From positions 51,050 to 115,049 of the forward strand of contig CAIZWN010000071.1 of NCBI GenBank assembly GCA_903936705.1: a stretch of DNA of 64,000 nt, given 5' to 3'. A program made the position numbers and the translations under genes. The stretch comes from an uncultured Myxococcales bacterium. GTDB taxonomy: Bacteria > Myxococcota_A > UBA9042 > DTJE01. The notes under the pieces are model-generated. The model did not search any database, was not told where the DNA came from, and was given only the letters and a program-made list of their open reading frames with translations. Each line of letters opens with the position of its first letter. The stretch's first letter is position 1. This document shows positions 3,467 to 47,718 of the stretch, piece after piece.

Positions 3467-6400
3467 CTACGTCAAGGGCAGGAGTTCCTGGGACCCGAAC
3501 AATCGCGTGCTGCCGGCCCATGGACCGGGGCAACGCCAAGCCACTGTGCATTGGCCGCATTCCACAGGCTTGGGTCGGGATTCGGCACGAATTGTCGACG
3601 CTGGACGAAGGCCGTCCAGTTCGGCAACCAGTTGCTGGTTCAGCGGACCTGGGGATTCAGCGGCATCCCACAGATCAGGGTCCAGGTGACACAAAACCAC
3701 GCCTTCGGTTCGCGCCTCAAGGCCAAGGCTGCGCGCAGTTCTCAAGGCGGTTCGCAGGTGGCTGGCTACGCGGCTGATGCGCACTGTCGGGGCCACGTCC
3801 AGCCGCTCCTGGTCCCCAAGCCAGACCGGCCGGGACAACGCAAATTGGACGCGAGACGCGCCTATGTCTGCCAACAGTCGAACCGTGGATTCCAGGTGCT
3901 GGCTGTTTGCGGCAAGTACGGGAATGTTGATCAGGAAAGGCAGATTCTCGGCCTTCAGACTGCGGATTCCAGCGACCGTTTGATCGAAAGCCCCAGGTGC
4001 TTGCGCAATCTTGTCGTGGATGTCGGGTTCGCTTCCGTAAATCGAGACCTCGAAGAAGGAAACTCCCTTGCGGGCCAGCAATCTGGCCAGTCCGGGATAG
4101 GCCAGAACGCGTCCGTTGGTCTGTATTTGGACGTGGTTGTAGCCCAGAACGCGGGCCTCGGTGATCAGGCGCAGTATGTCCTTGCGAATCAACGGTTCGC
4201 CACGCAGGAATACAACCTCGTTGCAGCCGTGGGCGCGTCCTTCGCGCAGTGCATTGATCGCGGCTTCCGTGTCACGTTCCGGCAGATGGGCGATGTCCCT
4301 GATGGTGCAGTGGATACACGCCGAGTTGCACCTGCTGCCCAGGCGCAGCAGCAGGCGGCCAAAACGCTGCTGGTCCGAGGCTGCCAGCACCGGTCCCCGG
4401 GGTGGTGGAGTTTCTTGCGCGGGCCGCCGCCAGCCGGTCCCTTGGACACTTGCGTTGGCGCCTGGACGCTCGACAAGCCATTCGCCGATTGCCAGGCAGT
4501 CGGCCCCGACCTGCAAAAAACTGTTCAACGCGTCCTGAGGCGAAGTTGCGATCGGTTCGTCCGCCGTGTTGAACGACGTGTTCAGGACCAGGGGGATTCC
4601 AGTGCGTCGGTGGAACTCGGAAATCGCCCGGTGGTAAAGGGGTTGCGCGTCGGCATGGACAGACTGAGGGCGCGTAGTCCCGTCGTGGTGAACGATTGCT
4701 GAAACCGCCTCGCGCCGATCCTTGCGCACCCCGGCGACGAACAACATGAATCCGTTGCCATTCGGGTTGTCGAACCAGTCGGCCTCGTGGCCGGCCAGGA
4801 TTGATGGAGCAAAGGGGCGCCAGGCCTCCCGTCCTTTTGCAACGTTCAGTCGGGGATGGAAATCCTGGCGTCCGGGATGGGCCAGAAGGCTTCGCGCCCC
4901 CAGTGCGCGTGGTCCTATCTCCAGACCGGACTGGCACCAGGCCACAACCTGGCCCGCTGCGATCCGTTCGCCTACTTCAACGGCGATGTCGGGCGCGCGT
5001 CGGGCAGGCAGGCCGAACGCATCAAGGGCCGCCTGAATCTCGGTGTCCTCCGGTTCGGGCCCCCAGCAAGCGTGGACCAGCGGCTGGAATGGAGGCTCGG
5101 AAGTAAGTTCCAGGTGTGCTACGAGCGCCGCACCTATTGCCGTGCCCCCATCGTGTGCGGCTGGTTGCACGAACATCGATTGCGGCTGAAAGTGCTGCTG
5201 GATCCGGCTGTTCATCTGGCAGTTCAAAGCCACTCCGCCGGCCAAACCCAGGTTCTGGATCACCTCGCCGCCCCGGCCCTCATCGATCAGCCGAATTATC
5301 GCTTCCTCAAGTGCCAATTGAACGCTTGCAGCCAAGGCCTTGTGGTCCTCGGTCAGCGGGTCGAAGCGTCCTCGGGACAGGTGTCCGAACGTCTTGTTGG
5401 CCTGGTTCTCGTGGATGCGGTGGCGACTGTGGGTTTCGATCGACAGGGCTGATGAAAGGTCGAAGCGTGGATCTCCCATCACGGCCAGGGCCATCGTTGA
5501 CCCCTGTCCATGGGAACCGAAGCCCAGGATTCGGCTGACGGTTTCGTAGACCCCACCGATGGACGAATCGTCCAGGGATAGGACGTCGAAGATGCGTTCC
5601 AGTCGGCCATCCCGGCCTTTGAAGAATGCGGCTGTTTCCCGGTCGCCGCGCCCGTCCACGGTCAGTATATGAGCGTCTGCCCCACCACCGAAATAGTACG
5701 CGCTTGCAGCGTGCGCCTGGTGGTGCGGAACGAATACGAACCGTCCGCTGACCAGGGTTCGAGGTGGTCTGGCTGCGTCCTCAAGGGAGTAGCTGCGGCG
5801 GAAGCGTCCAGGAATGCCGTTGACCCCGATGACGGCTACGTCGTCCAGCGTTATACCCTCGCGTTTCAGCAGCCAGTTCACCGACCGCCAGGCAAACGCC
5901 TCCTCGATCAAAACGGACATGTCATTGCATATCGTGCGGTTCGGGCGACCCGGTATCCTGAAACCGTGGTGCTTGACGCGGGACAAACGCTCCTCTTCGA
6001 CTGCACCGACCAGGCGTCCATCCTTCAGCAGCGCCGCCGAGTTTTCCTGCATCGTGGCAATCGCCAGACCAAGGCTGTAGACGGGGCGGGGGCGAACAGT
6101 ACAACGTTGCCAATCTGGCTGACGCTGCCGGATCTTTGGCGGCGCAAGTTCCGGGGAAGCGGTTCGCAGCAGTCCTGCCGGCCTTGTTCCATCGGGGGCC
6201 ATGACCTGTGCGGCCGAAGCCAGTGCAGGAGCCAAGGCACCGCGCGGGCAGGTTTCCACGCATGCCATGCACGACAGGCAGGATGTTTCATCGATCTTCA
6301 GCATCAGACCGCCGGAATCTGCACCAGTCGTGACCAACGGCGAGGGCGTGGTCGTGGTCGAACGATTCGAACCGTTCACTAGGGCAAGACATCCAGCTGG

Positions 6401-6805
6401 GCAGCTTGGCAGGCACTCGCCGCACGCAGCGCACAATGATGTTTTGTGCAACAAAATCCTGCCGGCGTGATCCCCCGGTGCAGCGCTGGTCTCGATCGCA
6501 GCTCGCCTGGGCGATTCGTGGGCCAGGCCCTCTACTGCAACGCCAAAAGGTCCGCGTCGCCATGCCGAGGCGTCAATCGATCTTTTGAATGGCGGCAATG
6601 GCCAAGGAGTACGCTTGCCAAGCCAATGCGAGGTGACCACAAGCGCGGCCCATGCGTCCTTCGAAGACAAGAACAGGCCTGTCGTTCCTGGAGTTCCGGG
6701 TGTGGGCACCGGGCCCAATATTCGCCGTATGCGCACCCGCCTGGGCGCCGGACGCAGAAGGTCGTACGCCCACAAAGAATGCCGTTCCTCGGGTGGCAGT
6801 GCCAT
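3467..6805 (-). CDS. Three-module fusion: 2x[4Fe-4S] ferredoxin + NodU/CmcH-family carbamoyltransferase + radical SAM domain with C-terminal Cys motif
   Basis: A single uninterrupted 1112-codon ORF. aa 124-186 carry two CxxCxxCxxxCP motifs (CAACGECLPSCP, CLSCMACVETCP). aa ~243-780 look like a carbamoyltransferase (VPHHQAHAASAYYFGG, LAGGVALNC, PAAHDGGTAIGAA, GPRALGARSLL, HDGTTRPQ, LNTSFN). aa ~815-1112 are radical SAM (CNSACIHC = CX3CX2C, RGEPL, QTNG) with terminal CGQCTVAWRCPG. The ATG at 6805 has GGAGG 7 nt upstream. The first ~115 aa are low complexity, so the true start could be internal. Confidence 0.8.
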   Translation of the reverse strand: MALPPEERHSLWAYDLLRPAPRRVRIRRILGPVPTPGTPGTTGLFLSSKDAWAALVVTSHWLGKRTPWPLPPFKRSIDASAWRRGPFGVAVEGLAHESPRRAAIETSAAPGDHAGRILLHKTSLCAACGECLPSCPAGCLALVNGSNRSTTTTPSPLVTTGADSGGLMLKIDETSCLSCMACVETCPRGALAPALASAAQVMAPDGTRPAGLLRTASPELAPPKIRQRQPDWQRCTVRPRPVYSLGLAIATMQENSAALLKDGRLVGAVEEERLSRVKHHGFRIPGRPNRTICNDMSVLIEEAFAWRSVNWLLKREGITLDDVAVIGVNGIPGRFRRSYSLEDAARPPRTLVSGRFVFVPHHQAHAASAYYFGGGADAHILTVDGRGDRETAAFFKGRDGRLERIFDVLSLDDSSIGGVYETVSRILGFGSHGQGSTMALAVMGDPRFDLSSALSIETHSRHRIHENQANKTFGHLSRGRFDPLTEDHKALAASVQLALEEAIIRLIDEGRGGEVIQNLGLAGGVALNCQMNSRIQQHFQPQSMFVQPAAHDGGTAIGAALVAHLELTSEPPFQPLVHACWGPEPEDTEIQAALDAFGLPARRAPDIAVEVGERIAAGQVVAWCQSGLEIGPRALGARSLLAHPGRQDFHPRLNVAKGREAWRPFAPSILAGHEADWFDNPNGNGFMLFVAGVRKDRREAVSAIVHHDGTTRPQSVHADAQPLYHRAISEFHRRTGIPLVLNTSFNTADEPIATSPQDALNSFLQVGADCLAIGEWLVERPGANASVQGTGWRRPAQETPPPRGPVLAASDQQRFGRLLLRLGSRCNSACIHCTIRDIAHLPERDTEAAINALREGRAHGCNEVVFLRGEPLIRKDILRLITEARVLGYNHVQIQTNGRVLAYPGLARLLARKGVSFFEVSIYGSEPDIHDKIAQAPGAFDQTVAGIRSLKAENLPFLINIPVLAANSQHLESTVRLLADIGASRVQFALSRPVWLGDQERLDVAPTVRISRVASHLRTALRTARSLGLEARTEGVVLCHLDPDLWDAAESPGPLNQQLVAELDGLRPASTIRAESRPKPVECGQCTVAWRCPGPWAGSTRLFGSQELLPLT

Positions 6806-6906: not shown

Positions 6907-7998
6907 GTGCCGATGAGGTCCGGGAACGACAACGGAAGACCTGGGGTGCCAACCCAGGAGGCGGACGACGTGGGAGATCGCGTCCACGTCTGCGTCGGCG
7001 CCTGGTGCAACAACAACTGTATTTTCTGCATGGAGATTGATCGCGAGGACAGGGCAGCGCGCGTGGCGTCCCAGACTGCTGACGACGTCAAACGAATGAT
7101 CGATGCAAATCGTGGCGTTCGCGAAATCCTGTTCACCAGCGGCGAGCCCACCATGAACAAGGAGTTGCCCAGATACATCGGTTGGGCCAGGGAGGCCGGC
7201 TACGAAGTCATCGGGGTCATCAGTAACGGCAGGATGTTCAGCTACGAACCCTACGTTCGGCGCCTTCTGGCGGCTGGCATGAACAACGTGATCGTCAGTA
7301 TTCATGGACACGATGCAAGGTTGCACGACGGGCTGACGCGCACCAAGGGCAGCTTTGACCAGACACTTGCCGGCCTGCGCTGCCTTTCCAGGTTGAGGGC
7401 CGAACGCGGGTTTTCAATCCAGACAAGCACTGTAATAAATCGCCGGAACATTCTGTTTCTTGGTGATATTTGCAGGCTTATGCAGACGCTTGATGCCGAT
7501 CGACATGTCTTCAACGTCATGATGCCGGATGGTCGAGGCCTGCAGCTTATCAGCCAGTTGATGCCGCGATATCTGGAAGTGCGCGATGCGTTTCTGGCGC
7601 TGGTTCCATTGCTGGCCCCTGAATTCCTTGCCAGGATTGCAGTGCTGGACGTGCCGTACTGCGCGACCGAGGGGCTCCCTGACAGCATGCGCGGGTACGT
7701 CGAGCGCTATTTCCACTACGAGCCGGCCGGCAGTTTCGAGGAAAGAGTTGCTGCGATGGGTCTGGAACCGCCCGTGGAAGGGGAGGGCGACCTGTTTCAA
7801 ACCAGTGCCATCGGTGGCGATTTGACCGCCTTCTCGCGGGTGACCCGTACCTTCCAGGAGGGTTACGTCAAGGTCAAGCGTGCCGAGTGCGCCGAGTGCC
7901 GGTTTGACGTCCTTTGTCGCGGGGCCTGGCGCGCGTATGTTGAACACTTCGGCTGGGACGAAATGGTTCCGGTGAAAACTGCCCCGTCTGGAAGTTGA
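6907..7998 (+). CDS. radical SAM protein (MoaA/PqqE-like core, C-terminal CxxCx5CxG motif)
   Basis: CNNNCIFC (CX3CX2C), SGEPTMNKE, ISNGRMF, VSIHGHDARLHDGLTRTKGSFDQTLAGL, C-terminal CAECRFDVLCRGAW. Divergent from the 3467-6805 gene across 101 nt. Start is GTG 6907 or ATG 6913. Confidence 0.85.
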   Translation: MPMRSGNDNGRPGVPTQEADDVGDRVHVCVGAWCNNNCIFCMEIDREDRAARVASQTADDVKRMIDANRGVREILFTSGEPTMNKELPRYIGWAREAGYEVIGVISNGRMFSYEPYVRRLLAAGMNNVIVSIHGHDARLHDGLTRTKGSFDQTLAGLRCLSRLRAERGFSIQTSTVINRRNILFLGDICRLMQTLDADRHVFNVMMPDGRGLQLISQLMPRYLEVRDAFLALVPLLAPEFLARIAVLDVPYCATEGLPDSMRGYVERYFHYEPAGSFEERVAAMGLEPPVEGEGDLFQTSAIGGDLTAFSRVTRTFQEGYVKVKRAECAECRFDVLCRGAWRAYVEHFGWDEMVPVKTAPSGS

Positions 7999-31923: not shown

Positions 31924-32130
31924 TCCTGCAATTGCTCCCGTAGTGGCCCCCTGCTTGACTGGCAAACAGCTCTACACCTTAACATTGCATATTCAGGCAT
32001 GCCAAAATGGCGGCAGATTTTCGTTGCGGACGCGAGGGTGGATCGCTTTCGACAAAAGATATGGGGTGTGCTTTCTTGATTGGTGGGTGAGCGGATGCTA
32101 CCCTTGGTTCGGTTCAATCAGCGGGCCTGC

Positions 32131-33084
32131 ATGGAGTTGACCTGTCTTAATTGTACTGGAGCCTTCGAGGTTGATGACGCTGCGGCCGATGGGGTCGCGG
32201 GGACGCTGGACTGCCCTCTTTGCGGAAGGGAGCAGCGTTTCGTTGCAAAGGGAGATCATCATATTGCGGAGTTCGAGCCATCCGAGGCCGCCGCTCGTCG
32301 CGAGCCGGTTTCAGACGGTTTTGGTGCAGCATTCCGCAAGCCCATGCAGGCTTTCGGGGGCCGAAGGGGAGCACGGCCCGGTGGTGCACCGGTATCTGGA
32401 TCCGCGGCACCTTCAGGCGAATCGCCGCGGATTTCGTCCACCGAGATGGCTTCCGCCAACCAGGTCTTTCCCCCGGCAGATAACTTCCGATTGAGGCCGG
32501 TTAACCTCCAGGCGGAATCGCCGATCCCGGACGAGCGGCTTGTCGAGTTAAAGCCTAACCCTGAAATACTTGATCCTGTCTCCGGATCCTGGGCTGTGAA
32601 GTCCCCAACCGGCCTGGTACTGGAGTTCCCCGAATCCGCCCTTCTGGTCAACTGGTCGGCAGTGGTCGAGAACCCGGCGCCTTACCAGGTTTCGCGTGGG
32701 GGGGAAACCTGGATGTCCCTGGAGGAATTCCTCCGTGAGACCAAGCGCGGCGTGCGGGCTACCCAGGCCTTCAGACGGACGTTGGACGAGCGGGGTTCGG
32801 GCCTGATACCCGTTCCCTTGGAGTCCGTTGCTGGCAGTTCATTCGCGCAGCCGCAGGATCCTGTTTCAATTGGCTTGCAGGGGGAACAACCTGGAGCCCC
32901 GGGGACTGTGGTTGCGACGCAAGCTTCCCAGCGAAATGCGGTTTCCACGACTGCCCAATTCACATTCAAGATTGCCACCAACAAGAAAACGGGCTTTCCG
33001 CGTTGGGCTGTTGCCCTGATCGTAGGCGGCGTGCTGGTGCTGCTGGGCAGTGGGGCAGCAGTGGCATTCCTGTTTCTGAAATGA
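32131..33084 (+). CDS. membrane-anchored protein with N-terminal MJ0042-type zinc ribbon
   Basis: MELTCLNCTGAFEV...LDCPLCGREQRF (CxxC...CxxC). A single C-terminal TM segment (WAVALIVGGVLVLLGSGAAVAFLFL). Confidence 0.6.
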   Translation: MELTCLNCTGAFEVDDAAADGVAGTLDCPLCGREQRFVAKGDHHIAEFEPSEAAARREPVSDGFGAAFRKPMQAFGGRRGARPGGAPVSGSAAPSGESPRISSTEMASANQVFPPADNFRLRPVNLQAESPIPDERLVELKPNPEILDPVSGSWAVKSPTGLVLEFPESALLVNWSAVVENPAPYQVSRGGETWMSLEEFLRETKRGVRATQAFRRTLDERGSGLIPVPLESVAGSSFAQPQDPVSIGLQGEQPGAPGTVVATQASQRNAVSTTAQFTFKIATNKKTGFPRWAVALIVGGVLVLLGSGAAVAFLFLK

Positions 33085-33099
33085 TTGCCGGCGGTAATT

Positions 33100-34743
33100 A
33101 TGGGAAAGGTCATATACATACGTACCAGTGACGGTGTGCTGCTGCGTTTCGAGGAAGCGGCGAAAGTACAGGCCTGGATTTCCAACGGTCGGCTGGGGCC
33201 GGCCGATTTGTACCTTGGTGGAGATCAGGGGTGGCATCCACTGTCCGAAATGCACGAGCCCGAGGGGGCGATGTTGCAAATGGCGCCGCCGCCTGCGTCT
33301 GGCAGGTCCGGACCGGTGGCCAAGTCGCTGGGTGCCGAAGAGCCTTCGGTCAGCCCATCCAGGAAGAAGAAACCCGAAGGCCCTGTCCGACGCGAGGCAA
33401 AGTCGCACAAGGCAGCTTCGCGACAGGTCGAGACTTCGATTGAAGCAATCCAGGCGCCTAGGGCGGAAGTGGCCGACCCGGTCGGTGTTGAGGCGATTCC
33501 GGCGGCATTGGCGAACGATGTGGTTCCGGTTGCCGAGGTCAAGCCAATTCCGGTTGCTCAGCCTGCCGGCGCCAGCAGCGTGGTAAAGACCGAACCGTCA
33601 CTTCGTCCGTTAGTGGTCGAGGCCAAGACGACTTCTCCGGAGCCGGTTGCGACTGTTCAGATGGTTGCGCAGGTTGATGTGCAGCGCGACGTGCTTGATG
33701 CGCCATCCGCCTTTTCCGTCGGGACCGAACTGGTCGGATCTGCACTGGATTCGGATTTGTGGGCGGCTGACCCCATTGGCGGGGCAGCCAGACGAAAGGC
33801 AACGCTGAAGCGCGCGATACCGTTCGCTATGCTGGTGTCCCTTGGCCTTGGCGGGCTTGTGGCCCTTGTCGTCTTGTCAAAGGAGGCCGAGATACCCGAG
33901 ATGCCCCCGGTTGCTGCGGTTTCTCCCATTCGGGAGGAGGGTGGCGCAGAGCCGGTTGCGGCACCCGTTGTCAAGGCGGCCGAGCCCGTCGAGTCGGAGC
34001 CGGCAGTTGCTCCGGTTGCCGCCAAGGTGCCGTCCCCCGATAAAGTACGGGCGATCGAATACGAACCATTTGCAGATCGAAAGAGCCCAGTGGCAGCACC
34101 TGTAGTGACGGCCCCACCGGTCAAGCCCGTCGTGCCTGACGTTGTCAGCCTTCGTGGCGGCGAAGCTGCACAGCCGGCCGTGCCAGCCGAATCCGCGGCT
34201 TCAGCCAGTCCGGTTCCGGCACGGCAGACCCCCGTACTTCGCACGGCAAGCGCAGATTCAAAGGAGGCTCGCGCCGCCTTGGTGCCACCGGCCGCTGTCC
34301 GCACGGTGCCGCCGGTTGCTGTTCGTGCTGTGCCGCCGGACTCGCGAGCGACCCCTGCTGCCAAGGAGCCTGTCGCCACCGAAGAACCGGATACCTTCGA
34401 CGGCCACATGGCTGCCGGTAATCGCGAGGTAAACCGCAATCCGGCGCTTGCGCAGGAACATTTCCAGTTGGCGGCACAGGCGCGGCCTGGACGTGTAGAG
34501 CCTGTGACTCGTCTGGGTGATTGCGCTGTCAGGATGGGCGACGTCGAGACCGCCGAGAAGCAATATCGGGCCGCCCTCAAGATAGGCGCGTCATTCTCGC
34601 CTGCGCTGCTGGGAATGGCGCGGGTTCAGAAGGCCCTGGGCAGCGCTTCCGACGCGCGGTACTACTACACCAGGTATCTCGATGTGAATCCGAAGGGCAG
34701 CCAGGCCGAAGAGGCCCAGTCCTACCTTGAACGCAACCCCTAG
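33100..34743 (+). CDS. GYF_2-like domain / TM / Pro-Ala-rich linker / C-terminal TPR protein
   Basis: N-terminus IYIRTSDGVLLRFEEAAKVQAWISNGRLGPADLYLGGDQGWHPLSEM (GYF_2/DUF4339-like). TM segment FAMLVSLGLGGLVALVVL. C-terminal TPR-like repeats (AEKQYRAALKIGASFSPALLGMARV..., ARYYYTRYLDVNP). Confidence 0.6.
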   Translation: MGKVIYIRTSDGVLLRFEEAAKVQAWISNGRLGPADLYLGGDQGWHPLSEMHEPEGAMLQMAPPPASGRSGPVAKSLGAEEPSVSPSRKKKPEGPVRREAKSHKAASRQVETSIEAIQAPRAEVADPVGVEAIPAALANDVVPVAEVKPIPVAQPAGASSVVKTEPSLRPLVVEAKTTSPEPVATVQMVAQVDVQRDVLDAPSAFSVGTELVGSALDSDLWAADPIGGAARRKATLKRAIPFAMLVSLGLGGLVALVVLSKEAEIPEMPPVAAVSPIREEGGAEPVAAPVVKAAEPVESEPAVAPVAAKVPSPDKVRAIEYEPFADRKSPVAAPVVTAPPVKPVVPDVVSLRGGEAAQPAVPAESAASASPVPARQTPVLRTASADSKEARAALVPPAAVRTVPPVAVRAVPPDSRATPAAKEPVATEEPDTFDGHMAAGNREVNRNPALAQEHFQLAAQARPGRVEPVTRLGDCAVRMGDVETAEKQYRAALKIGASFSPALLGMARVQKALGSASDARYYYTRYLDVNPKGSQAEEAQSYLERNP

Positions 34744-34749
34744 TCCAGG

Positions 34750-37062
34750 GTGCCGCTTGCCGATGCCGGGTCGCGTCGCTACCATACCGTCGTGAGTCAT
34801 CCCATTCGACGCGCACTGTTCCTGAACCCGACGCTGCACCTCCCTGCCGATTTCGTGGACTACCCCTGGTTTGCGCACCACGGCCTTTTGTTCGCCGCGG
34901 CTCGTGTTGCCAGGGCCGGATGGCAGGTCAAGCTGACCGACACCTTTGCGCTGCCGACCTCCGATCGTGTCGCGGATGGTTCTGGTTGGCGGTTGGGCGC
35001 TCCCGAGTCGGACCTGCTGGATGCAATTCCTGAAGGCCCTTTCGGTTTGGTTGTCATTGGATCGTCGTCCTTTTTAAGGCCATATCTGCCTGATCCACGC
35101 ACCGCCGCTTTCGTGGCTGCGGTCGGCAGGCGCTTTCCCGAGGCTGCCATCGTTCTTGCAGACGCCGATGTTGGAGGCATGCACGCGGTGGACTACGTGG
35201 GGACTTCGGTCATTGAAAAAATGGGTGCCCTGGACGTCGTGCTACGTCATTCTGGTGAAGATTTCTTTGGCGACCCGGATCGGCTGGTAGCATTGAAGGG
35301 TTCCCGTTCCGAGGTGCTTGATCCGCCCGGTCAGTGGGATGCACTTCCTCCATTTCCGTTGCTGGATGACCTGGACGCCGGTATGTACGGGGCTTTCCTT
35401 TGGCGCTGTTTTCGCGATGGCACGTGGTCGAACCCGTTCGGGATCGACGCATTCACCCGCCCGTTCATGACCTCCAGCGGATGTCCGCATCGCTGTGTCT
35501 TCTGCAGCAGCAACGCGGGCTGGCGGCAGACCGGTTGCAAGGTCCAGCGCGTGGTGCCACTTCATGTCCTGAAGGATTGGGCTTTCCTGGCTTCCCGCGT
35601 ACACGGCGCGCGCAAGCTGTTCATCCTTGACGAGATGGCCAACCTGCGCCACGACTTTGTAGAAATGTTGGAAATATTCGCGCAGCTCGACTTGCGCTAT
35701 GAGTTTCCGAACGGCCTGCGTGCTGACCGTTTGACCTCCGAAGCCATCGCGATGATGAAGGAGCGCATTTCACTGCTGTCGGTGTCAGCCGAGAGCGCCA
35801 GTGCCGCTGATCTGGCCGGCCCAATAGGCAAGCGCCAGGATCCGGCCCAGGTCGAACGCGTTGTTGCGGAAGCTGCCGGAATCGGTCTGCCAACGCTGGT
35901 CCATTTCGTGGTCGGGTTTCCCTGGGAGACGCCGAAATCGGTGCTGGCGACCCTTGATTTCGCCTGGCGCCTGTTCGACACCTATGGTGCGGCGCCCTCG
36001 GTCCAGTTTGCCACTCCACTGCGCGGCACGCCTCTCTTCGACATTTGCGTGCAGTCGGGCTTGATGTCTCCCGACGCCGGTACCTCGGCCGACGGCACGC
36101 TGTTTCAGCATCGTCCGGCGTTTCGGCCGCCGGCGATTCCCGAAGGCTGGTTGCAGACCGCTCACGCCATGTTTCGTCGCAAGGTTGAATCGGCATCGTC
36201 ACGCAAGGTCATCATCAACCTGACCTACGAGTGCATCAATGCGTGCGAGTTCTGCGCCGTTTCGAACCGCGAGAAACGTGACATCCCGTGGCCCCGGCTT
36301 CAGCAGTTCATCCGAGAATACAGGGCGCAAGGTCTGGATCAGATTGACCTTGACGGAGGCGAGCCAACTCTTCATCCCAACCTTGTCGACTCGATCAGAC
36401 TGGCCCGCGAGATAGGCTATAGGGAGATCAACGTCACCACCAACGGAAGGCGCCTGGCAGATTCAGTCTGGGCAAGGGAATTCCTATCCAGCGGGGTCAC
36501 CAGCGTTCTTGTTTCACTGCACGGTGAATCGTCAGGGATCCATGATGCGATAGTAGGTGTCCCTGGGGCCTTCGACGAGACCCTGGCTGGCATCAGAAAC
36601 CTGGTGACACTGCGAAAACATGGTCAGGACCTTGGGGTCAACATCACGGTATGCCGTCGCAACGTGGAACATCTTGATGCGCTTTTTGAATTGCTGGACC
36701 GCGAGCGCATAGACAAGGTGAACCTGCAATTGGTCACGCCGTTCGGATCGGCACGGCAGGATGTCGTTCCACCGGAGAGCCAGGCGACCGCAGCGGTGTG
36801 CCGGGTACTGGACCGCTTCGGAAAGTCGATGCGTTTGCACGTTGTAAACGCGCAGTTCTGCCTGTTTCCGGGTTACGAATCCTATCTTGGCGGAGACGTC
36901 GGCAAGGTGGGTCGTACGATGATCTTCGTGTCCGAAGAGAAGGTGAACCTGTTTGAATACCTGGCGGCCCGCCGCGTCCGTCGCCCGCCGTGCCTCGTCT
37001 GTCCCTGGGCTCCGGTGTGCGACGGCTTTTTCAAATTCGAGGAGGATGCCTCCGATGTCTGA
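34750..37062 (+). CDS. double radical SAM protein: B12-binding-like/class-B-type rSAM half fused to a MoaA/PqqE-like rSAM half with a C-terminal Cys motif
   Basis: Two CX3CX2C motifs: CPHRCVFC (aa 245-252, nt ~35482) and CINACEFC (aa 495-502, nt ~36232). The second half has GGEPTLHPN, TTNGRRL, VSLHGESSGIHDAIVGVPGAFDETLAGIRNL and terminal CLVCPWAPVCDG. Start is GTG 34750 (7 nt after the upstream stop) or GTG 34792. Confidence 0.8.
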   Translation: MPLADAGSRRYHTVVSHPIRRALFLNPTLHLPADFVDYPWFAHHGLLFAAARVARAGWQVKLTDTFALPTSDRVADGSGWRLGAPESDLLDAIPEGPFGLVVIGSSSFLRPYLPDPRTAAFVAAVGRRFPEAAIVLADADVGGMHAVDYVGTSVIEKMGALDVVLRHSGEDFFGDPDRLVALKGSRSEVLDPPGQWDALPPFPLLDDLDAGMYGAFLWRCFRDGTWSNPFGIDAFTRPFMTSSGCPHRCVFCSSNAGWRQTGCKVQRVVPLHVLKDWAFLASRVHGARKLFILDEMANLRHDFVEMLEIFAQLDLRYEFPNGLRADRLTSEAIAMMKERISLLSVSAESASAADLAGPIGKRQDPAQVERVVAEAAGIGLPTLVHFVVGFPWETPKSVLATLDFAWRLFDTYGAAPSVQFATPLRGTPLFDICVQSGLMSPDAGTSADGTLFQHRPAFRPPAIPEGWLQTAHAMFRRKVESASSRKVIINLTYECINACEFCAVSNREKRDIPWPRLQQFIREYRAQGLDQIDLDGGEPTLHPNLVDSIRLAREIGYREINVTTNGRRLADSVWAREFLSSGVTSVLVSLHGESSGIHDAIVGVPGAFDETLAGIRNLVTLRKHGQDLGVNITVCRRNVEHLDALFELLDRERIDKVNLQLVTPFGSARQDVVPPESQATAAVCRVLDRFGKSMRLHVVNAQFCLFPGYESYLGGDVGKVGRTMIFVSEEKVNLFEYLAARRVRRPPCLVCPWAPVCDGFFKFEEDASDV

Positions 37063-37993
37063 TCGTGCAGCCTTCGGTGTTGTTGATGACATGTCGGACG
37101 TCCTGGTGGACGTAATCCTCGGCTACGAGTGCAATGTCCAATGCGACTACTGCTCGATCACGCCGGGGATGCGACTCAGCAACATGTCGACCAAGGTGGT
37201 GATCGAGGAACTGGCCCGCGCCCGGGCGCTGGGAATGTCGCGAGTGGCGTTTGGCGGCGGCGAGCCTACCATCCGCCGGGACCTGTTCCCGCTGGTCAGA
37301 TACGCCCGGGATCGCGGCTTTGCGTCGGTCAAGGTGTCGTCGAACGGACTGATGTACTCGTACGAGGACTACGTGCGCCAGGCGATCGAGGCCGGGATCA
37401 CCGATTTTCATGTTTCGGTGATGGCGCATACGCCGGAACTCTACAGGAAGATTCTGGGGCATAAGGAAGGCCTCGAACTGGTCACTCGTGGGGTCGGCAA
37501 CCTTGTTGCGGCGGGACATGTGCCGGTCCTGGATCTGATCGTGAAGGACGACACCTACATGCACCTGTCGGATATCATCGCGTACTGGGCGGCCCTGGGC
37601 GCGCGAATGTTCCCGCTGTGGCTGGTGTCCTTGTCGGACCGGAACCGCGACAACGTGGACTCTCTTCCCCCGGTCTCGCTGATGCGGGCGTCCCTGGTTG
37701 CGGCCTTCGAGCGCGGGCGCGAACTGGGCGTCACCGTCTATTCAAGGCATATTCCTCGATGCATGTTGCGGGGGTACGAGGCTTTCTGTCGGGACCTCCG
37801 TGATGATCGCGTGCTGGTTGTCACTCCAGGATCCAGGTTCTTCCTTTGGGAGTCGGCCATCAGTCCGAACACTTACAGCCCCAGGTGCGAGTCGTGTCTG
37901 TACGTTCGACGGGAGTGCCAGGGGATCCGTCGGGACTATTTGGAACGCCACGGGGATGCCGAGGTCGTGCCCTACGAGGGTCGGGATGGATGA
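37055..37993 (+). CDS. radical SAM protein (paralog of 6907..7998)
   Basis: CNVQCDYC, GGGEPTIRRD, SSNGLMY, VSVMAH..., C-terminal CESCLYVRRECQG. ATG at 37055 overlaps the upstream stop (ATGTCTGA), with GAGGAGGA as RBS. Confidence 0.85.
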   Translation: MSDRAAFGVVDDMSDVLVDVILGYECNVQCDYCSITPGMRLSNMSTKVVIEELARARALGMSRVAFGGGEPTIRRDLFPLVRYARDRGFASVKVSSNGLMYSYEDYVRQAIEAGITDFHVSVMAHTPELYRKILGHKEGLELVTRGVGNLVAAGHVPVLDLIVKDDTYMHLSDIIAYWAALGARMFPLWLVSLSDRNRDNVDSLPPVSLMRASLVAAFERGRELGVTVYSRHIPRCMLRGYEAFCRDLRDDRVLVVTPGSRFFLWESAISPNTYSPRCESCLYVRRECQGIRRDYLERHGDAEVVPYEGRDG

Positions 37994-38918
37994 TCGAGAC
38001 GCGCTGCCTGGCAGCAATTCGTTCGACTACATACCGGTTCGGGAACTTCAAGGCTTCATGCTGGACGTTTCATGCTGCACCGCGCGTGAACTGGGTCTTT
38101 CCCGCGCAGCTACCAGCCGCGCCGTTATCGTGGCTGTGGATGCGAGGTTCGTGCTTTGCAGGACGGACACTGGGGACTTCTCGGATGCCCAGGTCAGGCT
38201 CGTTGTTCATCAGCGGGGCCAGCTGTATCTGGATGTCTCGGGAAAGCCGGCGATAACGGATTTCGGGCGCGACGTCCGTCAGGTCGTGGTTTCGCCGACG
38301 TGCCGGTCCTGCCCGGACCTGGCAACATGCTGTGCCTGCTATGTTCCGACGTTCGCCTGGTTCTTCGAGGATGACGAGAAGGTCCTGGAGGACTGGCTGC
38401 GGGCCAGGCGAGGCCGCCTGCTTGACGTGGGAATGGGTTTTGCCCCATACCGCGAGGCAATGTCCGACGCGATTCTAGGCGGTCGGCTGGAGTACCACGG
38501 CCTTGACCCCGATCCTGCGGTCATTGCGGCGGCCGGGGCCTCGGGACTTCCGATGAGCCTGCACGAGGTTGCCATCGAGGCGTTTGTGGGCTGCGAAGGA
38601 TTCTTCGATGCGGCAGTGGCATTGCGTAGCTTGAACCATTTTCAAGATGTTGATTGCGCGCTTGACGTCATTGCCAGGTGTCTTCGCCCCGGGGCCGAGG
38701 TTCTGATGATCGAATCGTTGCCATTGCCGCTGGTTCGTTCGCGCAGGCATGCTTCGCTATGCCATGTCGAGGCGGCCGGAGGACACGCTCATCTCAGGAA
38801 CTGGGACTCGTCGCAGGTCGTTGCGCGCCTGCCGGGTCGTCCATTCTCGGTAGTCCAGGAACGGCCGGTCGGTCGCGACACGTGCGACCAGTGGATTCTT
38901 CGATTGCGCCGGGATTGA
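37986..38918 (+). CDS. class I SAM-dependent methyltransferase with Cys-rich N-terminal domain
   Basis: LLDVGMGFAPY (motif I-like), LRPGAEVLMIE (post-II/III-like). N-terminal CRSCPDLATCCACY. ATG at 37986 overlaps the upstream stop (ATGGATGA). Confidence 0.65.
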   Translation: MDDRDALPGSNSFDYIPVRELQGFMLDVSCCTARELGLSRAATSRAVIVAVDARFVLCRTDTGDFSDAQVRLVVHQRGQLYLDVSGKPAITDFGRDVRQVVVSPTCRSCPDLATCCACYVPTFAWFFEDDEKVLEDWLRARRGRLLDVGMGFAPYREAMSDAILGGRLEYHGLDPDPAVIAAAGASGLPMSLHEVAIEAFVGCEGFFDAAVALRSLNHFQDVDCALDVIARCLRPGAEVLMIESLPLPLVRSRRHASLCHVEAAGGHAHLRNWDSSQVVARLPGRPFSVVQERPVGRDTCDQWILRLRRD

Positions 38919-38928
38919 AAACCCGAGA

Positions 38929-40917
38929 TCAGTCAGTCACGAACAGGACCCTGGCGATCTCCTCTGGGGTCGTTATGCCGTTGACCAGCAGGTGGCGGCA
39001 ATGCTCGCGCAGCGGCTGGAACAGGCCGGTTTCCATGGCCATCTTCTCGATTACCGGCATGGACTCGCCTGCGGCTATCAGCGGACGAAGGCGGTCGTCA
39101 ACCCGCAGGACTTCGAAGACGCCGACGCGGCCGCGGAAGCCCTGGTAGTTGCAGTTCAAACACCCGCTGCCCTTCATGAACGAGAAGCCGCCAGCCCCCT
39201 CGTCCTTTCCGAACAGCCCCAGCGGCATGATCAGGTCCGGGTGATATGTTGTAGGCTGGCGACAGTGCGGGCAAACCCTGCGCAACAGGCGCTGGCTGAC
39301 GACGCCTACCAGAGTGTGGGCCAGAAGGAACGATTCGACCCCCATCTCGCGCATGCGCACCACCGAACCCAGCGCGTCGTTCGCGTGCAGCGACGTGAAC
39401 ACCAGGTGACCCGTCAGCGCGGCTTCGACCGTCGTTGCGGCCGTCTGCGGGTCGCGGGTCTCGCCGACGACGATTACGTCCGGATCCTGACGCAGGAAGT
39501 GGCGAACACTGTTCGCGAATGAGACGCCGGCCGCATCGTTCACCTGCACCTGAGTGATCCCTTCGATGGTGTACTCGATGGGGTCCTCGATCGTGACGAT
39601 ATTGATTTCATCCTCGCGCAACCGAAGCATCGCGCTGTAGATGGTCGTCGTCTTGCCGCTGCCGGTCGGGCCGGCAATTATGACCAGGCCTTGCGGTTGT
39701 TCGATCATCCAGCGCATTGCACGATAGGTCGGGTCATGAAGGATCAGGCGTTCCAGATCGATAAGGACCGTCTGGGGATCCAGGATTCGCAGGACCAACT
39801 TCTCGCCGAATCGCGTTGGGACCGTCGACAGGCGAAAGTCGATCTGGCGGCGTCCGTGCTCGACAGACAAGCGGCCATCCTGGGCGCGGCGCTTTTCGGC
39901 GATGTCCATCCTGCCCAGCGCCTTCAGTCGCGATACCAGAGGCGGGTGGAACCTCATATCCAGGGGTTCAGGGCGACGCTTCAGTCTGCCGTCCACCCGG
40001 TAACGGACGACCATTTCGGTCTCGGACGGTTCCAGGTGGATGTCGCTGGCAGCCAGTTCGAGTGCCTCGCCGATCAGCCGGTTGACAAGGGCGACAACCA
40101 TCTCTCCCGAAATCTGCTTGCCTCGTTCATCCGGTGTCACGGAGGGCGTGGAATCGATCAAGCGGACTTCGTGGGCCTTCTGGCTGACCATCTGAAACCA
40201 GCGATCTCGTGGATTTTCGTCCGGGCGCAGCTTTTCCAGGGCCGGAATGACGTTAGTCCGAAAGAACCGGTCGAACTCGCTGCCATCCAGGGCGACCGGG
40301 CGCACCCGATAGCTGGTCAGCACGCGCGACACGTCGTCAACAATGTTCAGGTCACCAGGGTCCACGAAGCCGACTACCAGCACGCGGCCATTACGGGCCA
40401 GTGGGAGGGCGCGGTACTTGCGCATCTGGGTCTGAGGCAGCAGTCCCCACAAGGATTCGTCCAGCTTCAGGCGGGCCAGGTCAACGACGCGGGCGCCGGT
40501 TGGAACCGAGGCTGCCTGAAGCCGCTCGGCCACGGTTCGCAGAAGGGCCGCGTGAAGGACCGGATCGTCGGCACACGCCTCCAGCAAAGCAGCTCGGGGC
40601 AGCATGGCGAGGGTTGTTGGTTCCTGGACCCAGGCCGAAACGCCATGGGGCGCGCCAAGGAGAATCTCGGCAAGACCAAGGAAATCGCCAGGACCAAGGC
40701 GGCCTCCCAGGTATTCCAGACCGTCGGCGATGTCGCGCCATCCGGTCTGCAAACGGCCTTCGACGATGATCGCTACAACGTTCGGCTGCGAGTCCTGGCG
40801 GCAAACCTCCTGGTCAGGCAGCAGGGTGACGGTTTCCATCGCTGCCGAAAAAGAGGCCACGCGGGCGGGGGCGAACGACGCGAAAAGCGGCATTGCAAGT
40901 ACGGCGTCCAGGTCCAT
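38929..40917 (-). CDS. GspE/PilB-family secretion ATPase with N-terminal cyclic-nucleotide-binding-like domain and T2SSE_N domain
   Basis: N-terminus LAMPLFASF...VCRQDSQPNVVAIIVEGRL (cNMP-binding fold-like). T2SSE_N-like segment (RALPLARNGRVLVVGFVDPGDLNIVDDV). Walker A GPTGSGKTTT, Asp/His boxes, and tetra-Cys CPHC...CLNC. ATG at 40917; the ORF extends to 40998. Confidence 0.85.
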   Translation of the reverse strand: MDLDAVLAMPLFASFAPARVASFSAAMETVTLLPDQEVCRQDSQPNVVAIIVEGRLQTGWRDIADGLEYLGGRLGPGDFLGLAEILLGAPHGVSAWVQEPTTLAMLPRAALLEACADDPVLHAALLRTVAERLQAASVPTGARVVDLARLKLDESLWGLLPQTQMRKYRALPLARNGRVLVVGFVDPGDLNIVDDVSRVLTSYRVRPVALDGSEFDRFFRTNVIPALEKLRPDENPRDRWFQMVSQKAHEVRLIDSTPSVTPDERGKQISGEMVVALVNRLIGEALELAASDIHLEPSETEMVVRYRVDGRLKRRPEPLDMRFHPPLVSRLKALGRMDIAEKRRAQDGRLSVEHGRRQIDFRLSTVPTRFGEKLVLRILDPQTVLIDLERLILHDPTYRAMRWMIEQPQGLVIIAGPTGSGKTTTIYSAMLRLREDEINIVTIEDPIEYTIEGITQVQVNDAAGVSFANSVRHFLRQDPDVIVVGETRDPQTAATTVEAALTGHLVFTSLHANDALGSVVRMREMGVESFLLAHTLVGVVSQRLLRRVCPHCRQPTTYHPDLIMPLGLFGKDEGAGGFSFMKGSGCLNCNYQGFRGRVGVFEVLRVDDRLRPLIAAGESMPVIEKMAMETGLFQPLREHCRHLLVNGITTPEEIARVLFVTD

Positions 40918-41136
40918 GGCAGACTCCGGGGTGAACGGCCTAGGATTGCAGTAAGCGCGTCGCGTGGCAATACCGAGCGACCGATTTGAATGCGGCATTC
41001 CGGCTTTGTGATGAGCAATGGTTTCGACATGATGATTGGTCTTCGGGCGCGGGCGAAACCATGGCGAGAATGCCCGTATGGCGTTGCCAACAACTGGCTG
41101 AAATTGTAGACTCCCGCCGGTCTTCAGGAGCTCTCA

Positions 41137-43502: not shown

Positions 43503-43745
43503 ATGTCGATTTCCACCATCTCTGCCAAGGGTCAAATCACGCTTCCGGCAGCACTCAGGAAGAAATTCGGTTTGATGCCTAGGTCCCGCGTTGTTGTGGA
43601 ATCGACTGCTGACGGCATTCTGATCCGCAATGCCGGTGACTTCTTCGAATTGTATGGATTCCTGGGCAAAGGCCTTGGGCGTGAGGCCGAGCGGGCGCAG
43701 ATGATGAAGGGCATCGTGGCGCATGTCGATCGGAGGGACGAATGA
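43503..43745 (+). CDS. vapB: AbrB/SpoVT-fold antitoxin (VapB-type)
   Basis: MSISTISAKGQITLPAALRKKFGL is a SpoVT/AbrB swapped-hairpin motif. 80 aa, with a 4-nt overlap onto the PIN gene. Confidence 0.85.
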   Translation: MSISTISAKGQITLPAALRKKFGLMPRSRVVVESTADGILIRNAGDFFELYGFLGKGLGREAERAQMMKGIVAHVDRRDE

Positions 43746-44149
43746 CCAGCGTTTTCGTCGATGCCAACGTTTTTCTGCGGTTCTTTACCGCAGATGATTC
43801 TTGCCAGCACGAGTCAGCCGAGAAGCTTTTTCGGGAGGCTGCCGCCGGTCGTGTGTCCTTGGTTACGGGCCCACCTGTCCTGTTCGAGATTGCGTGGACG
43901 CTGCGCTCGGCCTACGGACTTAAAGCGGACAGGATCCTGGATGTCCTGTCGAGAATTGTCTCGTTGTCGGGACTTGATCTAGCTGACGGACCTGTCGTCG
44001 AGGAGGCAATCTCGATCGCGACGAAGTCCGGGACCGAGTTCGCTGATTCCTACATACTGGCGTCGTCCCGCCGGCTGGGCGCCGGCTGTGTCGCGACCTT
44101 CAATAAAAAGGACTTCCGAAAGATGGGTGCGACTCTTCAGCATCTTTGA
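43742..44149 (+). CDS. vapC: PIN-domain ribonuclease toxin (VapC-type)
   Basis: VFVDANVFLRF (first acidic residue) and FADSYILASS are typical PIN motifs. 135 aa. Confidence 0.85.
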   Translation: MTSVFVDANVFLRFFTADDSCQHESAEKLFREAAAGRVSLVTGPPVLFEIAWTLRSAYGLKADRILDVLSRIVSLSGLDLADGPVVEEAISIATKSGTEFADSYILASSRRLGAGCVATFNKKDFRKMGATLQHL

Positions 44150-47649: not shown

Positions 47650-47718
47650 GGGATATTCTCCTCCTTTTGCTTTCCCTGGCAATGCAACCTTCATGCGGGA
47701 CCAATCTCGCAATCCGGC

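Follow-up and report, generated by a model that had tools for sequence, protein, structure and literature searches.

His-Xaa-Ser (HXS) systems were reportedly predicted in silico in 2011. The canonical system, which comprises HxsA, HxsB, HxsC plus HxsD (TIGR03976-03979), became the first to be tied to a function only in 2026, when it was described as an antiphage defense (Nat Commun 2026; PMC13128918). There, HxsC, HxsD and HxsB mature HxsA, an SHRSS motif of which gains 8 Da (a "+C/-4H-type" change), and HxsC and HxsD form a complex (PMC13128918). A second point of reference is FbiC, a single chain with two radical S-adenosylmethionine (radical SAM, rSAM) domains that employs two 5'-deoxyadenosyl radicals on one pathway (PMC11917521). 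Here, we analyzed a stretch of 64,000 nucleotides (nt) from an uncultured Myxococcales bacterium (GCA_903936705.1, contig CAIZWN010000071.1, positions 51,050 to 115,049 of the forward strand), called the window below, and in it a cassette of three genes encoding a double rSAM protein (P1), a second rSAM protein (P2) and a methyltransferase (MT) with a Cys-rich N-terminal domain (P3). A literature search on the type 4 families HxsA4 and HxsC4, on tandem rSAM proteins and on the P1 and P3 families returned nothing beyond the canonical HXS paper and FbiC, and no orthologous cluster was found to be linked there to a known product.

On balance, the cassette is probably a detached module of accessory enzymes for the maturation of type-4 His-Xaa-Ser (HxsA4) peptides. 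Orthologues of P1, P2 and P3, at 45-53% identity, are encoded together with HxsA4 (loci L011 and L092), and an HxsA4-type peptide is favored as substrate because precursors made of His-Gly-Ser repeats adjoin the orthologues elsewhere. These orthologous loci suggest that the genome of the window may also hold an HxsA4-type substrate, another substrate being possible. The features of the cassette are as follows, with the basis of each in brackets (ORF, open reading frame; aa, amino acids).

34750..37062, forward strand: P1, double rSAM protein, 770 aa, GTG start at 34750 (ORF)
34807..35349, forward strand: Rossmann-like, B12-binding-like N-terminal domain of P1, aa ~20-200 (model, Foldseek)
35452..36159, forward strand: first rSAM core of P1, aa ~235-470 (motifs, alignment, PDB profile match)
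36202..36849, forward strand: second rSAM core of P1, HxsC/MoaA/PqqE/BlsE-like, aa ~485-700 (best Pfam stretch 489-648, NCBIfam, PDB)
36859..37020, forward strand: C-terminal auxiliary 4-Cys motif of P1, twitch-like, C704...C748-x2-C751-x5-C757 (conservation)
37055..37993, forward strand: P2, rSAM protein, 312 aa (ORF, Pfam, paralogy to the C-half of P1)
37986..38918, forward strand: P3, Cys domain and class I SAM MT, 310 aa (ORF, Pfam, model)
38007..38384, forward strand: N-terminal domain of P3, aa 8-133 (28-sequence alignment)
38400..38786, forward strand: class I SAM-dependent MT domain of P3, aa 139-267 (Pfam, structural similarity)

P1-family loci, HxsA4 precursors and natural fusions

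The P1 family counts ~180 protein clusters of 736-780 aa, all annotated merely as "radical SAM protein". A scan with one genome per species gave 138 P1 loci; the best 80 of these all come from metagenome-assembled genomes (MAGs), mostly of Myxococcota, Binatia and Thermodesulfobacteriota. HxsA4, HxsB or HxsD was encoded within 10 kb of P1 in 30 of 73 P1-family loci, in several gene orders and lineages. Moreover, a regular-expression (regex) scan of all loci revealed ORFs of ~100-280 aa with 15-25 tandem His-Gly-Ser repeats adjoining P1 homologues, in many loci of class 2 (see below) and in L011, L050, L051, L052, L062 and L075. These ORFs belong to NCBIfam HxsA4 (NF038313), with 79-143 bits against a cut-off of 55 (L001, L011, L062 and L092 included). 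They consist of a conserved leader of ~55 aa (MS.KKNGLPSLRKKPLDFLS...LLAQH) followed by MSHAS(HGS)n, with HGSW at every end, which is the layout of the precursor of a ribosomally synthesized and post-translationally modified peptide (RiPP). HxsA4 proteins are widespread, forming 232 clusters, and their loci are dense in rSAM genes and HxsD.

In L011, where P1 and P2 are 53% and 62% identical to those of the window, HxsA4 lies in one co-oriented string with P1-P2, in the order 636-aa double rSAM protein, HxsA4, 624-aa double rSAM protein, 476-aa protein, 728-aa UbiA-domain protein, P1, P2; neither HxsB nor HxsD was seen within the 13 kb of this locus. L062 is a single cluster with HxsD, HxsB, HxsA4, two rSAM genes, a P3-like MT, P1, P2 and four further rSAM genes, and its MT retains the P3 motifs (SNSFNY, TDTGDF-type and CxxCx5C). 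L092 was reached via the fused protein closest to P3. Its operon encodes HxsD-like (48 bits vs 41), HxsB (497 vs 370), HxsA4 (108 vs 55), an rSAM::P3 fusion with 50% identity to the P3 of the window over 306 aa of its P3 part, and a P2 orthologue (45% identical). We also observed that the 636- and 624-aa proteins flanking HxsA4 in L011 (2589-13199) each have two CX3CX2C and two CX2CX6C motifs. Tandem rSAM domains had been called uncommon in the preliminary description of this DNA; they are so in general, but not within HxsA4-type clusters, where double-rSAM proteins recur. As for the two remaining proteins of the L011 string, the 476-aa one gave no domain match and the 728-aa one, encoded just 5' of P1-P2, has a UbiA prenyltransferase domain.

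Mapping the neighbor genes by tblastn divided the loci into three context classes. Class 1 (Myxococcota; P1 44-75% identical to that of the window) has the order P1-P2-P3, the window's own type, often at one chromosomal place, where ftsK and a 334-aa gene precede the cassette and a secretion ATPase follows it. Class 2 (P1 44-50% identical) encodes rSAM proteins of 617, 626 and 345 aa, P1, a 310-aa rSAM protein that is the orthologue of P2, HxsD, an HxsD-like protein and HxsB, and here the curated cut-offs are passed by HxsB (506.5 bits vs 370), HxsD (55 vs 50) and the HxsD-like protein (59.6 vs 41). In class 3 (P1 35-40% identical), P1 stands alone among uninformative neighbors, 2 loci having HxsB ~9 kb off. 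On a neighbor-joining tree of P1, the Hxs-linked loci occupy the deep branches as well as the clade sister to class 1, and L011 lies inside the class-1 clade.

Class-2 loci such as L001 (5222-15627) contain six rSAM genes in a row, which encode up to ~nine such domains, and in class-2 HxsA4 clusters a conserved protein of 138-225 aa is always paired with HxsA4. Two candidates from this class were rejected. A 40-aa ORF after the P2 homologue of L001, considered as a precursor, has no repeats and is not conserved (the gap there is 42 nt in L004), and the 617- and 626-aa proteins, considered as rSAM::P3 fusions, align to P3 only in the CxxC motif.

P1, P2 and P3 also occur fused, in nearly all pairings. 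The commonest P3 fusion, of ~570-650 aa, joins an HxsC/P2-like rSAM domain to P3 (rSAM::P3; P0296, P0301, P0304, P0306 and P0358), and we further found P1 N-half::P3 (P0299, and also in L042 and L043), P3::P1 (P0368, 1055 aa), P1::P3 (P0335) and rSAM::P3::rSAM (P0373). Together with the conserved overlap of P1 and P2 described below, this Rosetta-stone evidence argues that P1, P2 and P3 work as one complex. Within this predicted complex, the tightest pairing is that of the N-half of P1 with the MT. In L091 (71-5125), the gene directly after that of the 1055-aa P3::P1 fusion encodes a subtilase (Peptidase_S8). This enzyme has a prodomain of the fervidolysin type and might cut off a leader peptide, an activity to be expected in such a system.

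In L042 (10001-12466) and L043 (9224-12445), the syntenic locus of two Myxococcales MAGs, an in-frame fusion joins P1 residues 1-486 to P3 via ~30 aa of linker, and the C-half of P1 and P2 are deleted; L039, binned with L043 in one MAG, has a P1-P2 pair with P1 seemingly interrupted. Such variants, and the missing other Hxs genes, would suit a decaying, functionless remnant of a larger Hxs4 cluster. We regard this as extremely unlikely, as the reading frames of the cassette are all intact, the catalytic cysteines and the start/stop overlap architecture are conserved across the clade, and the cassette is kept in at least 15 divergent MAGs.

Domains and conserved cysteines of P1, P2 and P3

With its CX3CX2C motifs and a Pfam Radical_SAM (PF04055) match of 105.6 bits in 2 stretches (cut-off 29.5), P1 belongs to the radical SAM superfamily. 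The first motif is C245/C249/C252 (nt 35482-35505), in a core that also has SAM-binding-type motifs (S346/E348 and H385..G389..E393), and the second is C495/C499/C502 (nt 36232-36255), with GGEP at 536-539. In the alignment, 74/74 family members share all 10 cysteines of P1 without exception, as well as the motifs GGEP, NGR and SxHG, and the auxiliary cysteines C704, C748, C751 and C757 are invariant in every full-length one. The preliminary description had placed two CX3CX2C cores, at nt 35482 and 36232, in a 770-aa protein and had called the second one MoaA/PqqE-like; ORF, motif listing and the two Pfam stretches agree with the former, and the structural neighbors MoaA, PqqE, BlsE and SkfB (PDB, Foldseek) with the latter. 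It had also asked if the first half would lack an rSAM fold, and the AlphaFold model of P1 (29 homologues; predicted local distance difference test, pLDDT, 88.9; predicted template modeling score, pTM, 0.84) gives it a confident one.

The N-terminal domain of P1 shows alternating strands and helices in the model and contains an invariant D37-Y38-P39. Foldseek matched the N-half, that is the Rossmann-like domain and the first rSAM core, best to MgmA, AprD4, TokK, CysS and TsrM, the E values against MgmA, TokK, CysS, TsrM, OxsB and AprD4 being 1e-14 to 1e-8, and a PDB profile search found AprD4 (6fd2; E 5.5e-17) over profile positions 223-456 of P1. AprD4 is not known to bind cobalamin. The Pfam B12-binding model (PF02310) gave no match on the P1 of the window, while a distant homologue in L067 had a sub-threshold one (20.6 bits vs 32.1, E 4e-4). 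The B12-binding-like N-terminus proposed earlier is consequently upheld at the level of the fold (MgmA, AprD4, TokK, CysS, TsrM) but not by Pfam: in the model it is B12-binding-like at fold level only. Of the hallmarks of cobalamin-dependent (class B) rSAM enzymes, P1 has the fold, a Rossmann-like domain ahead of an rSAM barrel, and not the PF02310 match, and any use of cobalamin by P1 is hypothetical.

The C-half of P1 has BlsE, SkfB, SuiB, PqqE, MoaA and GDGT-MAS as PDB and Foldseek neighbors. Its best NCBIfam matches were HxsC4 (106.4 bits, cut-off 500) and HxsC (TIGR03977; 86.2 bits, cut-off 267.9), both below threshold, and the models of CofG, CofH and FbiC were not among the best 25 of 61 NCBIfam matches. 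P2 is a paralogue of this half (24% identity, E 2e-17), the alignment extending into the C-terminal Cys region. It belongs to the same superfamily (Radical_SAM 67.3 bits vs 29.5), with CX3CX2C at C26/C30/C33 (nt 37130-37153) and auxiliary cysteines C236 and C278-x2-C281-x6-C288 (nt 37760-37918), and these cluster cysteines are at least 95% conserved in 44 homologues. In NCBIfam, HxsC4 came second for P2 (68.4 bits vs 500), just behind archaeal MoaA, and HxsC reached 45.3 bits vs 267.9. SPASM (PF13186) had no Pfam match on P1 or P2; the 4-Cys sets of P1 (C704/748/751/757) and P2 (C236/278/281/288) are conserved, and the structural neighbors are twitch or SPASM enzymes.

P3 belongs to the class I SAM-dependent methyltransferases by its Pfam matches (Methyltransf_11/25/12/23, all above cut-offs) and its Rossmann MT fold. 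Its model (pLDDT 92.4) shows an N-terminal domain of ~125 aa made of strands and helices and then the class I MT fold, whose structural neighbors are small-molecule and natural-product MTs (NmbA, Ecm18, NodS, RebM and UbiG). The N-terminal domain carries the motifs SNSFDY and RTDTGDF, C31 and C106-x2-C109-x5-C115 (nt 38301-38330), the CxxCx5C lying inside CRSCPDLATCCACY (aa 106-119), and its cysteines C31, C106, C109 and C115, invariant in 28 homologues, are a candidate Fe-S or Zn site. This fits the preliminary description, which had a class I SAM MT preceded by the cysteine cluster CRSCPDLATCCACY. An exhaustive search with the N-terminal domain gave 106 representative clusters, and an MT domain follows it in 10/10 matches scanned with Pfam and in the aligned stand-alone relatives of P3; fusions of the domain to rSAM enzymes are frequent. 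Two readings of this domain were rejected. For a peptide binder like HxsD or like a RiPP recognition element (RRE), hhalign gave a probability of 0.1%, and for a duplicate of the Cys domain at the C-terminus of the rSAM proteins only the CxxC motif aligned.

Because the cysteines of P1, P2 and P3 are conserved and the models of P1 and P3 are confident, the catalytic apparatus appears to be intact and under selection. Counting motifs, the cassette could bind ~six metal clusters.

Gene junctions, neighboring genes and locus A

P1, P2 and P3 are translationally coupled. The P1 stop and the P2 ATG (37055) overlap by 8 nt (ATGTCTGA at 37055-37062), with AGGAGG 9 nt 5' of the ATG, and the P2 stop and the P3 ATG (37986) again by 8 nt (ATGGATGA at 37986-37993), with GAGGG 5 nt 5' of the ATG; both overlaps are exactly as had been described. 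The first, of the pattern ATGnnTGA, is more than chance because it is kept in 11/15 class-1 sister loci. P1 may start instead at an in-frame GTG at 34792, giving 756 aa and a better match to the N-termini of homologues. Neither the P1/P2 nor the P2/P3 junction showed a promoter-like or terminator-like site; the sole terminator-like match (38417-38431) lies within P3 and is below shuffle expectation. The cassette is 6 nt from the upstream gene, which encodes a tetratricopeptide repeat (TPR) protein, and 10 nt from the convergent secretion-ATPase gene, leaving no room for a hidden short ORF at its edges, and its GC content is that of the rest of the window. A riboswitch search (SAM or cobalamin) of 31000-39500 gave no Rfam match at E up to 0.1.

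Other features that touch on the cassette are the following.

32080..34743, forward strand: two upstream genes of 334 aa and 552 aa, the latter carrying TPRs in its C-terminal part (0-nt and 6-nt gaps; TPR matches)
6907..7998, forward strand: locus A, HxsC-like rSAM protein, 363 aa, with CX3CX2C and CX2CX6C (possibly linked to the cassette)
3467..6805, reverse strand: locus A, fusion protein of 1112 aa with 2x[4Fe-4S] ferredoxin (Fer4), carbamoyltransferase (Carbam_trans_N/C) and rSAM domains (divergent from the 363-aa rSAM gene)

As the two upstream genes abut the cassette and the only promoter-like site in 31800-39200 (31979-32008) lies 5' of both, one transcript may span all five genes. In sister loci, the 334-aa gene remains with ftsK at a varying distance from the cassette; the 334-aa and 552-aa genes follow ftsK and not the cassette in other genomes, and are not conserved partners of it. 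Locus A had been tied to the cassette in the preliminary description, and this tie gains support from orthologues of the 363-aa rSAM protein (48-49% identity) encoded ~5 kb from P1-P2-MT in L009 and L033. The ferredoxin-carbamoyltransferase-rSAM architecture of the 1112-aa protein is unusual in itself.

Downstream, convergent on the cassette, the gene at 38929-40998 (reverse strand) encodes a type II/IV secretion ATPase (T2SSE), which has cyclic-nucleotide-binding and MshEN domains in its N-terminal part and is syntenic with the cassette in several MAGs. It is followed by a gene for a 734-aa protein (41137-43341, forward strand) with an N-terminal multi-pass membrane region, a sulfatase domain and a sub-threshold MopE-like Cu-binding motif, and by a pair with a 4-nt overlap encoding a MazE/AbrB-type antitoxin (43503-43745, forward strand) and a PIN-domain toxin (43742-44149, forward strand). 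The gene at 44305-47712 (reverse strand) encodes a predicted surface protein of 1135 aa with 9 DUF7151 modules split by collagen-like (N/D)GT tripeptide repeats and a C-terminal hydrophobic stretch ending in RKRG, of MYXO-CTERM-like look.

The MazE/PIN pair, 4.6 kb downstream of the cassette, raises the question of antiphage defense, in which the module would help to mature a phage-blocking effector, as the canonical HXS system does. HxsABCD of E. coli and Klebsiella, the sole relative studied, is indeed a broad antiphage system in which rSAM enzymes mature HxsA (PMC13128918). We nonetheless consider such a role improbable. The cassette is syntenic and vertically inherited in MAGs with 50-75% P1 identity, unlike a mobile defense island; HxsA4, a leader followed by (HGS)n-W, is built unlike HxsA, with its five HxS repeats and peptidoglycan-binding domain; and an effector gene is absent from the window. 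The cassette was also rejected as a known defense system, the PADLOC matches being merely of a generic viperin-like (pVip-like) rSAM kind.

Proposed function and comparison with known systems

If the cassette indeed matures peptides of the HxsA4 type, P1, P2 and P3 would form one multi-enzyme, Fe-S-rich tailoring complex. Each rSAM domain would cleave SAM reductively, and the resulting 5'-deoxyadenosyl radical would abstract hydrogen atoms of His, Gly or Ser residues in a ribosomal peptide of repetitive sequence that resembles HxsA4, with a leader of ~55 aa and then MSHAS(HGS)n-W. By analogy with HxsC on the SHRSS of HxsA, the two HxsC-like domains (C-half of P1, and P2) could introduce oxidative cross-links or desaturations, and the pair made of the B12-like-domain rSAM N-half of P1 and the P3 MT might add or process a one-carbon unit; we infer this one-carbon step because of the fusions and of the net +C change in the canonical HXS system. 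The genome of the window would then encode the peptide, and HxsB or HxsD if it has them, beyond the 64 kb.

Several results weigh against an HxsA4-type peptide as the substrate. HxsA4, HxsB and HxsD were not found in the 64-kb window by regex, tblastn or hidden Markov model (HMM), the window being the scope of the Hxs search at this locus (the permease at its right end is indexed only on contigs of at most 7.4 kb), nor in 364 kb of class-1 sister loci, except for HxsA4 in L011. The cassette contains no recognizable peptide-binding element, neither an RRE nor an HxsD, and the N-terminal domain of P3 is unrelated to HxsD. It is vertically conserved in Myxococcota MAGs at a housekeeping-like place (ftsK ... 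gspE-like ATPase), a synteny that suits a role in core metabolism no less than one in RiPP formation or defense. The HxsC (86 vs 268 bits) and HxsC4 (106 vs 500) scores are far under the curated cut-offs, and the nearest solved structures include the small-molecule enzymes AprD4, BlsE, MoaA and viperin. As a canonical HXS system, the cassette falls short of the HxsC equivalog cut-off and has no HxsA, HxsB or HxsD in its locus; as a type 4 Hxs system, it falls short of the HxsC4 cut-off (NF038332) and has no HxsA4 in cis within the window. Having failed both the HxsC and the HxsC4 cut-offs, its proteins are not in those families and form an unnamed accessory set.

Two candidate substrates were rejected. 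The His-rich and HxS-repeat matches in or near the cassette, in the window and in the checked sister loci except L011, are spurious out-of-frame ORFs, in agreement with the preliminary description, which had found no precursor ORF nearby. The (N/D)GT-repeat protein at 44305-47712 (reverse strand) matches the HxsA4 HMM (E 1.6e-17) in a merely compositional way and is absent from all other loci.

These observations could also mean, as the main alternative, that the module was recruited in this Myxococcota clade for a small molecule, a cofactor, a lipid or the maturation of a metalloenzyme, maybe with locus A, the Hxs link being ancestral only. The precursor, HxsB and HxsD are missing from the window and nearly all sister loci, the cassette offers no RRE or HxsD-like element, and it is syntenic among core genes (ftsK, shikimate genes, thrS and the secretion ATPase) with unremarkable GC. 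In addition, the P3 MT is closest to the small-molecule MTs NmbA, Ecm18, NodS, RebM and UbiG, AprD4 (aminoglycoside), BlsE (nucleoside), MoaA and GDGT-MAS (lipid) are enzymes that the halves of P1 look like, in L009 and L033 the rSAM gene of locus A lies near the cassette, and a UbiA-type prenyltransferase domain is encoded beside P1 in L011. We nevertheless hold this recruitment to be unlikely: with orthologues at 45-53% identity in HxsA4 operons (L011 and L092), a switch to another kind of substrate is not the most parsimonious interpretation; the structural neighbors also include the peptide and protein modifiers MgmA, SuiB, SkfB and PqqE; and no glycosyltransferase, polyketide synthase, nonribosomal peptide synthetase or lipid genes are conserved beside the cassette. 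The tailoring cassette of the preliminary description thus holds, and its substrate class, which had been left as lipid, cofactor or peptide, is now favored to be peptide, given the HxsA4 precursors beside the orthologues.

A bolder possibility, which we put forward tentatively and find rather doubtful, is that P1-P2-P3, perhaps with the rSAM genes of locus A, constitute a stand-alone, vertically inherited pathway of this Myxococcota clade. It would make a new cross-linked, methylated product from a His-Gly-Ser peptide or another substrate via ~six Fe-S clusters and three rSAM sites, with a chemistry unlike that of the characterized rSAM systems and a role not necessarily in phage defense. If this were true, the product could be a new class of RiPP or peptide cofactor with a tripeptide-repeat core.

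Accessory enzymes of HxsA4 peptide maturation, as we favor for the cassette, would belong to an unstudied branch, type 4, which has an (HGS)n-W core and is very dense in rSAM, one cluster having as many as nine rSAM domains. As a compact, conserved sub-module whose parts evidently work together (one B12-like rSAM, two HxsC-like rSAM and one Cys-domain MT), the cassette would offer a tractable entry to HxsC-type chemistry on His and Ser, and the natural fusions indicate which of its parts dock together. For annotation, three proteins so far labeled only "radical SAM protein" or "methyltransferase" now find their place in a defined system, and such modules can sit far from their substrate genes.

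Compared with known enzymes, P1 resembles FbiC (F0 synthase; a CofG+CofH fusion) in architecture only, by two rSAM domains in one polypeptide; the sequences are related at superfamily level only, the domain types are others, and neither a partner MT nor another rSAM protein goes with FbiC. The N-half of P1 shares with AprD4 (6fd2), MgmA (9ccb), TokK, CysS and TsrM the fold of a Rossmann-like domain and then an rSAM barrel, but the identity is only 15-18%, Pfam finds no B12-binding domain, and P1 is fused to a second rSAM domain. The C-half of P1 and P2 share the core fold with BlsE (7vob), SkfB, PqqE, SuiB, MoaA and GDGT-MAS and have a C-terminal Cys-rich region that may correspond to the auxiliary-cluster region of these; unlike these twitch/SPASM enzymes, they have one 4-Cys set (C...CX2CX5-6C), no SPASM match in Pfam and no N-terminal RRE.

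With regard to canonical HXS, the window is without HxsA, HxsB and HxsD and its scores are far under the HxsC cut-offs. Two components of the cassette, an rSAM with a B12-like domain, fused in cis, and an MT with a Cys domain, are no part of the four-gene system, and the associated peptides are HxsA4 (leader, 15-25 HGS and W) and not the five-repeat HxsA that carries a peptidoglycan-binding domain. On the other hand, the C-half of P1 and P2 are HxsC-like, putatively twitch-type rSAM domains with HxsC4 or HxsC among their best NCBIfam matches, and the genes of P1 and P2 orthologues adjoin those of bona fide HxsB, HxsD and proteins with His-Xaa-Ser repeats. As for NCBIfam type 4 (HxsA4, NF038313; HxsC4, NF038332), neither P1 (106 bits) nor P2 (68 bits) is HxsC4 itself, for which 500 bits are required, and they are separate, unnamed accessory families; HxsC4 is nonetheless the top match of the C-half of P1 and the second of P2, and the orthologous loci carry HxsA4 above its cut-off.

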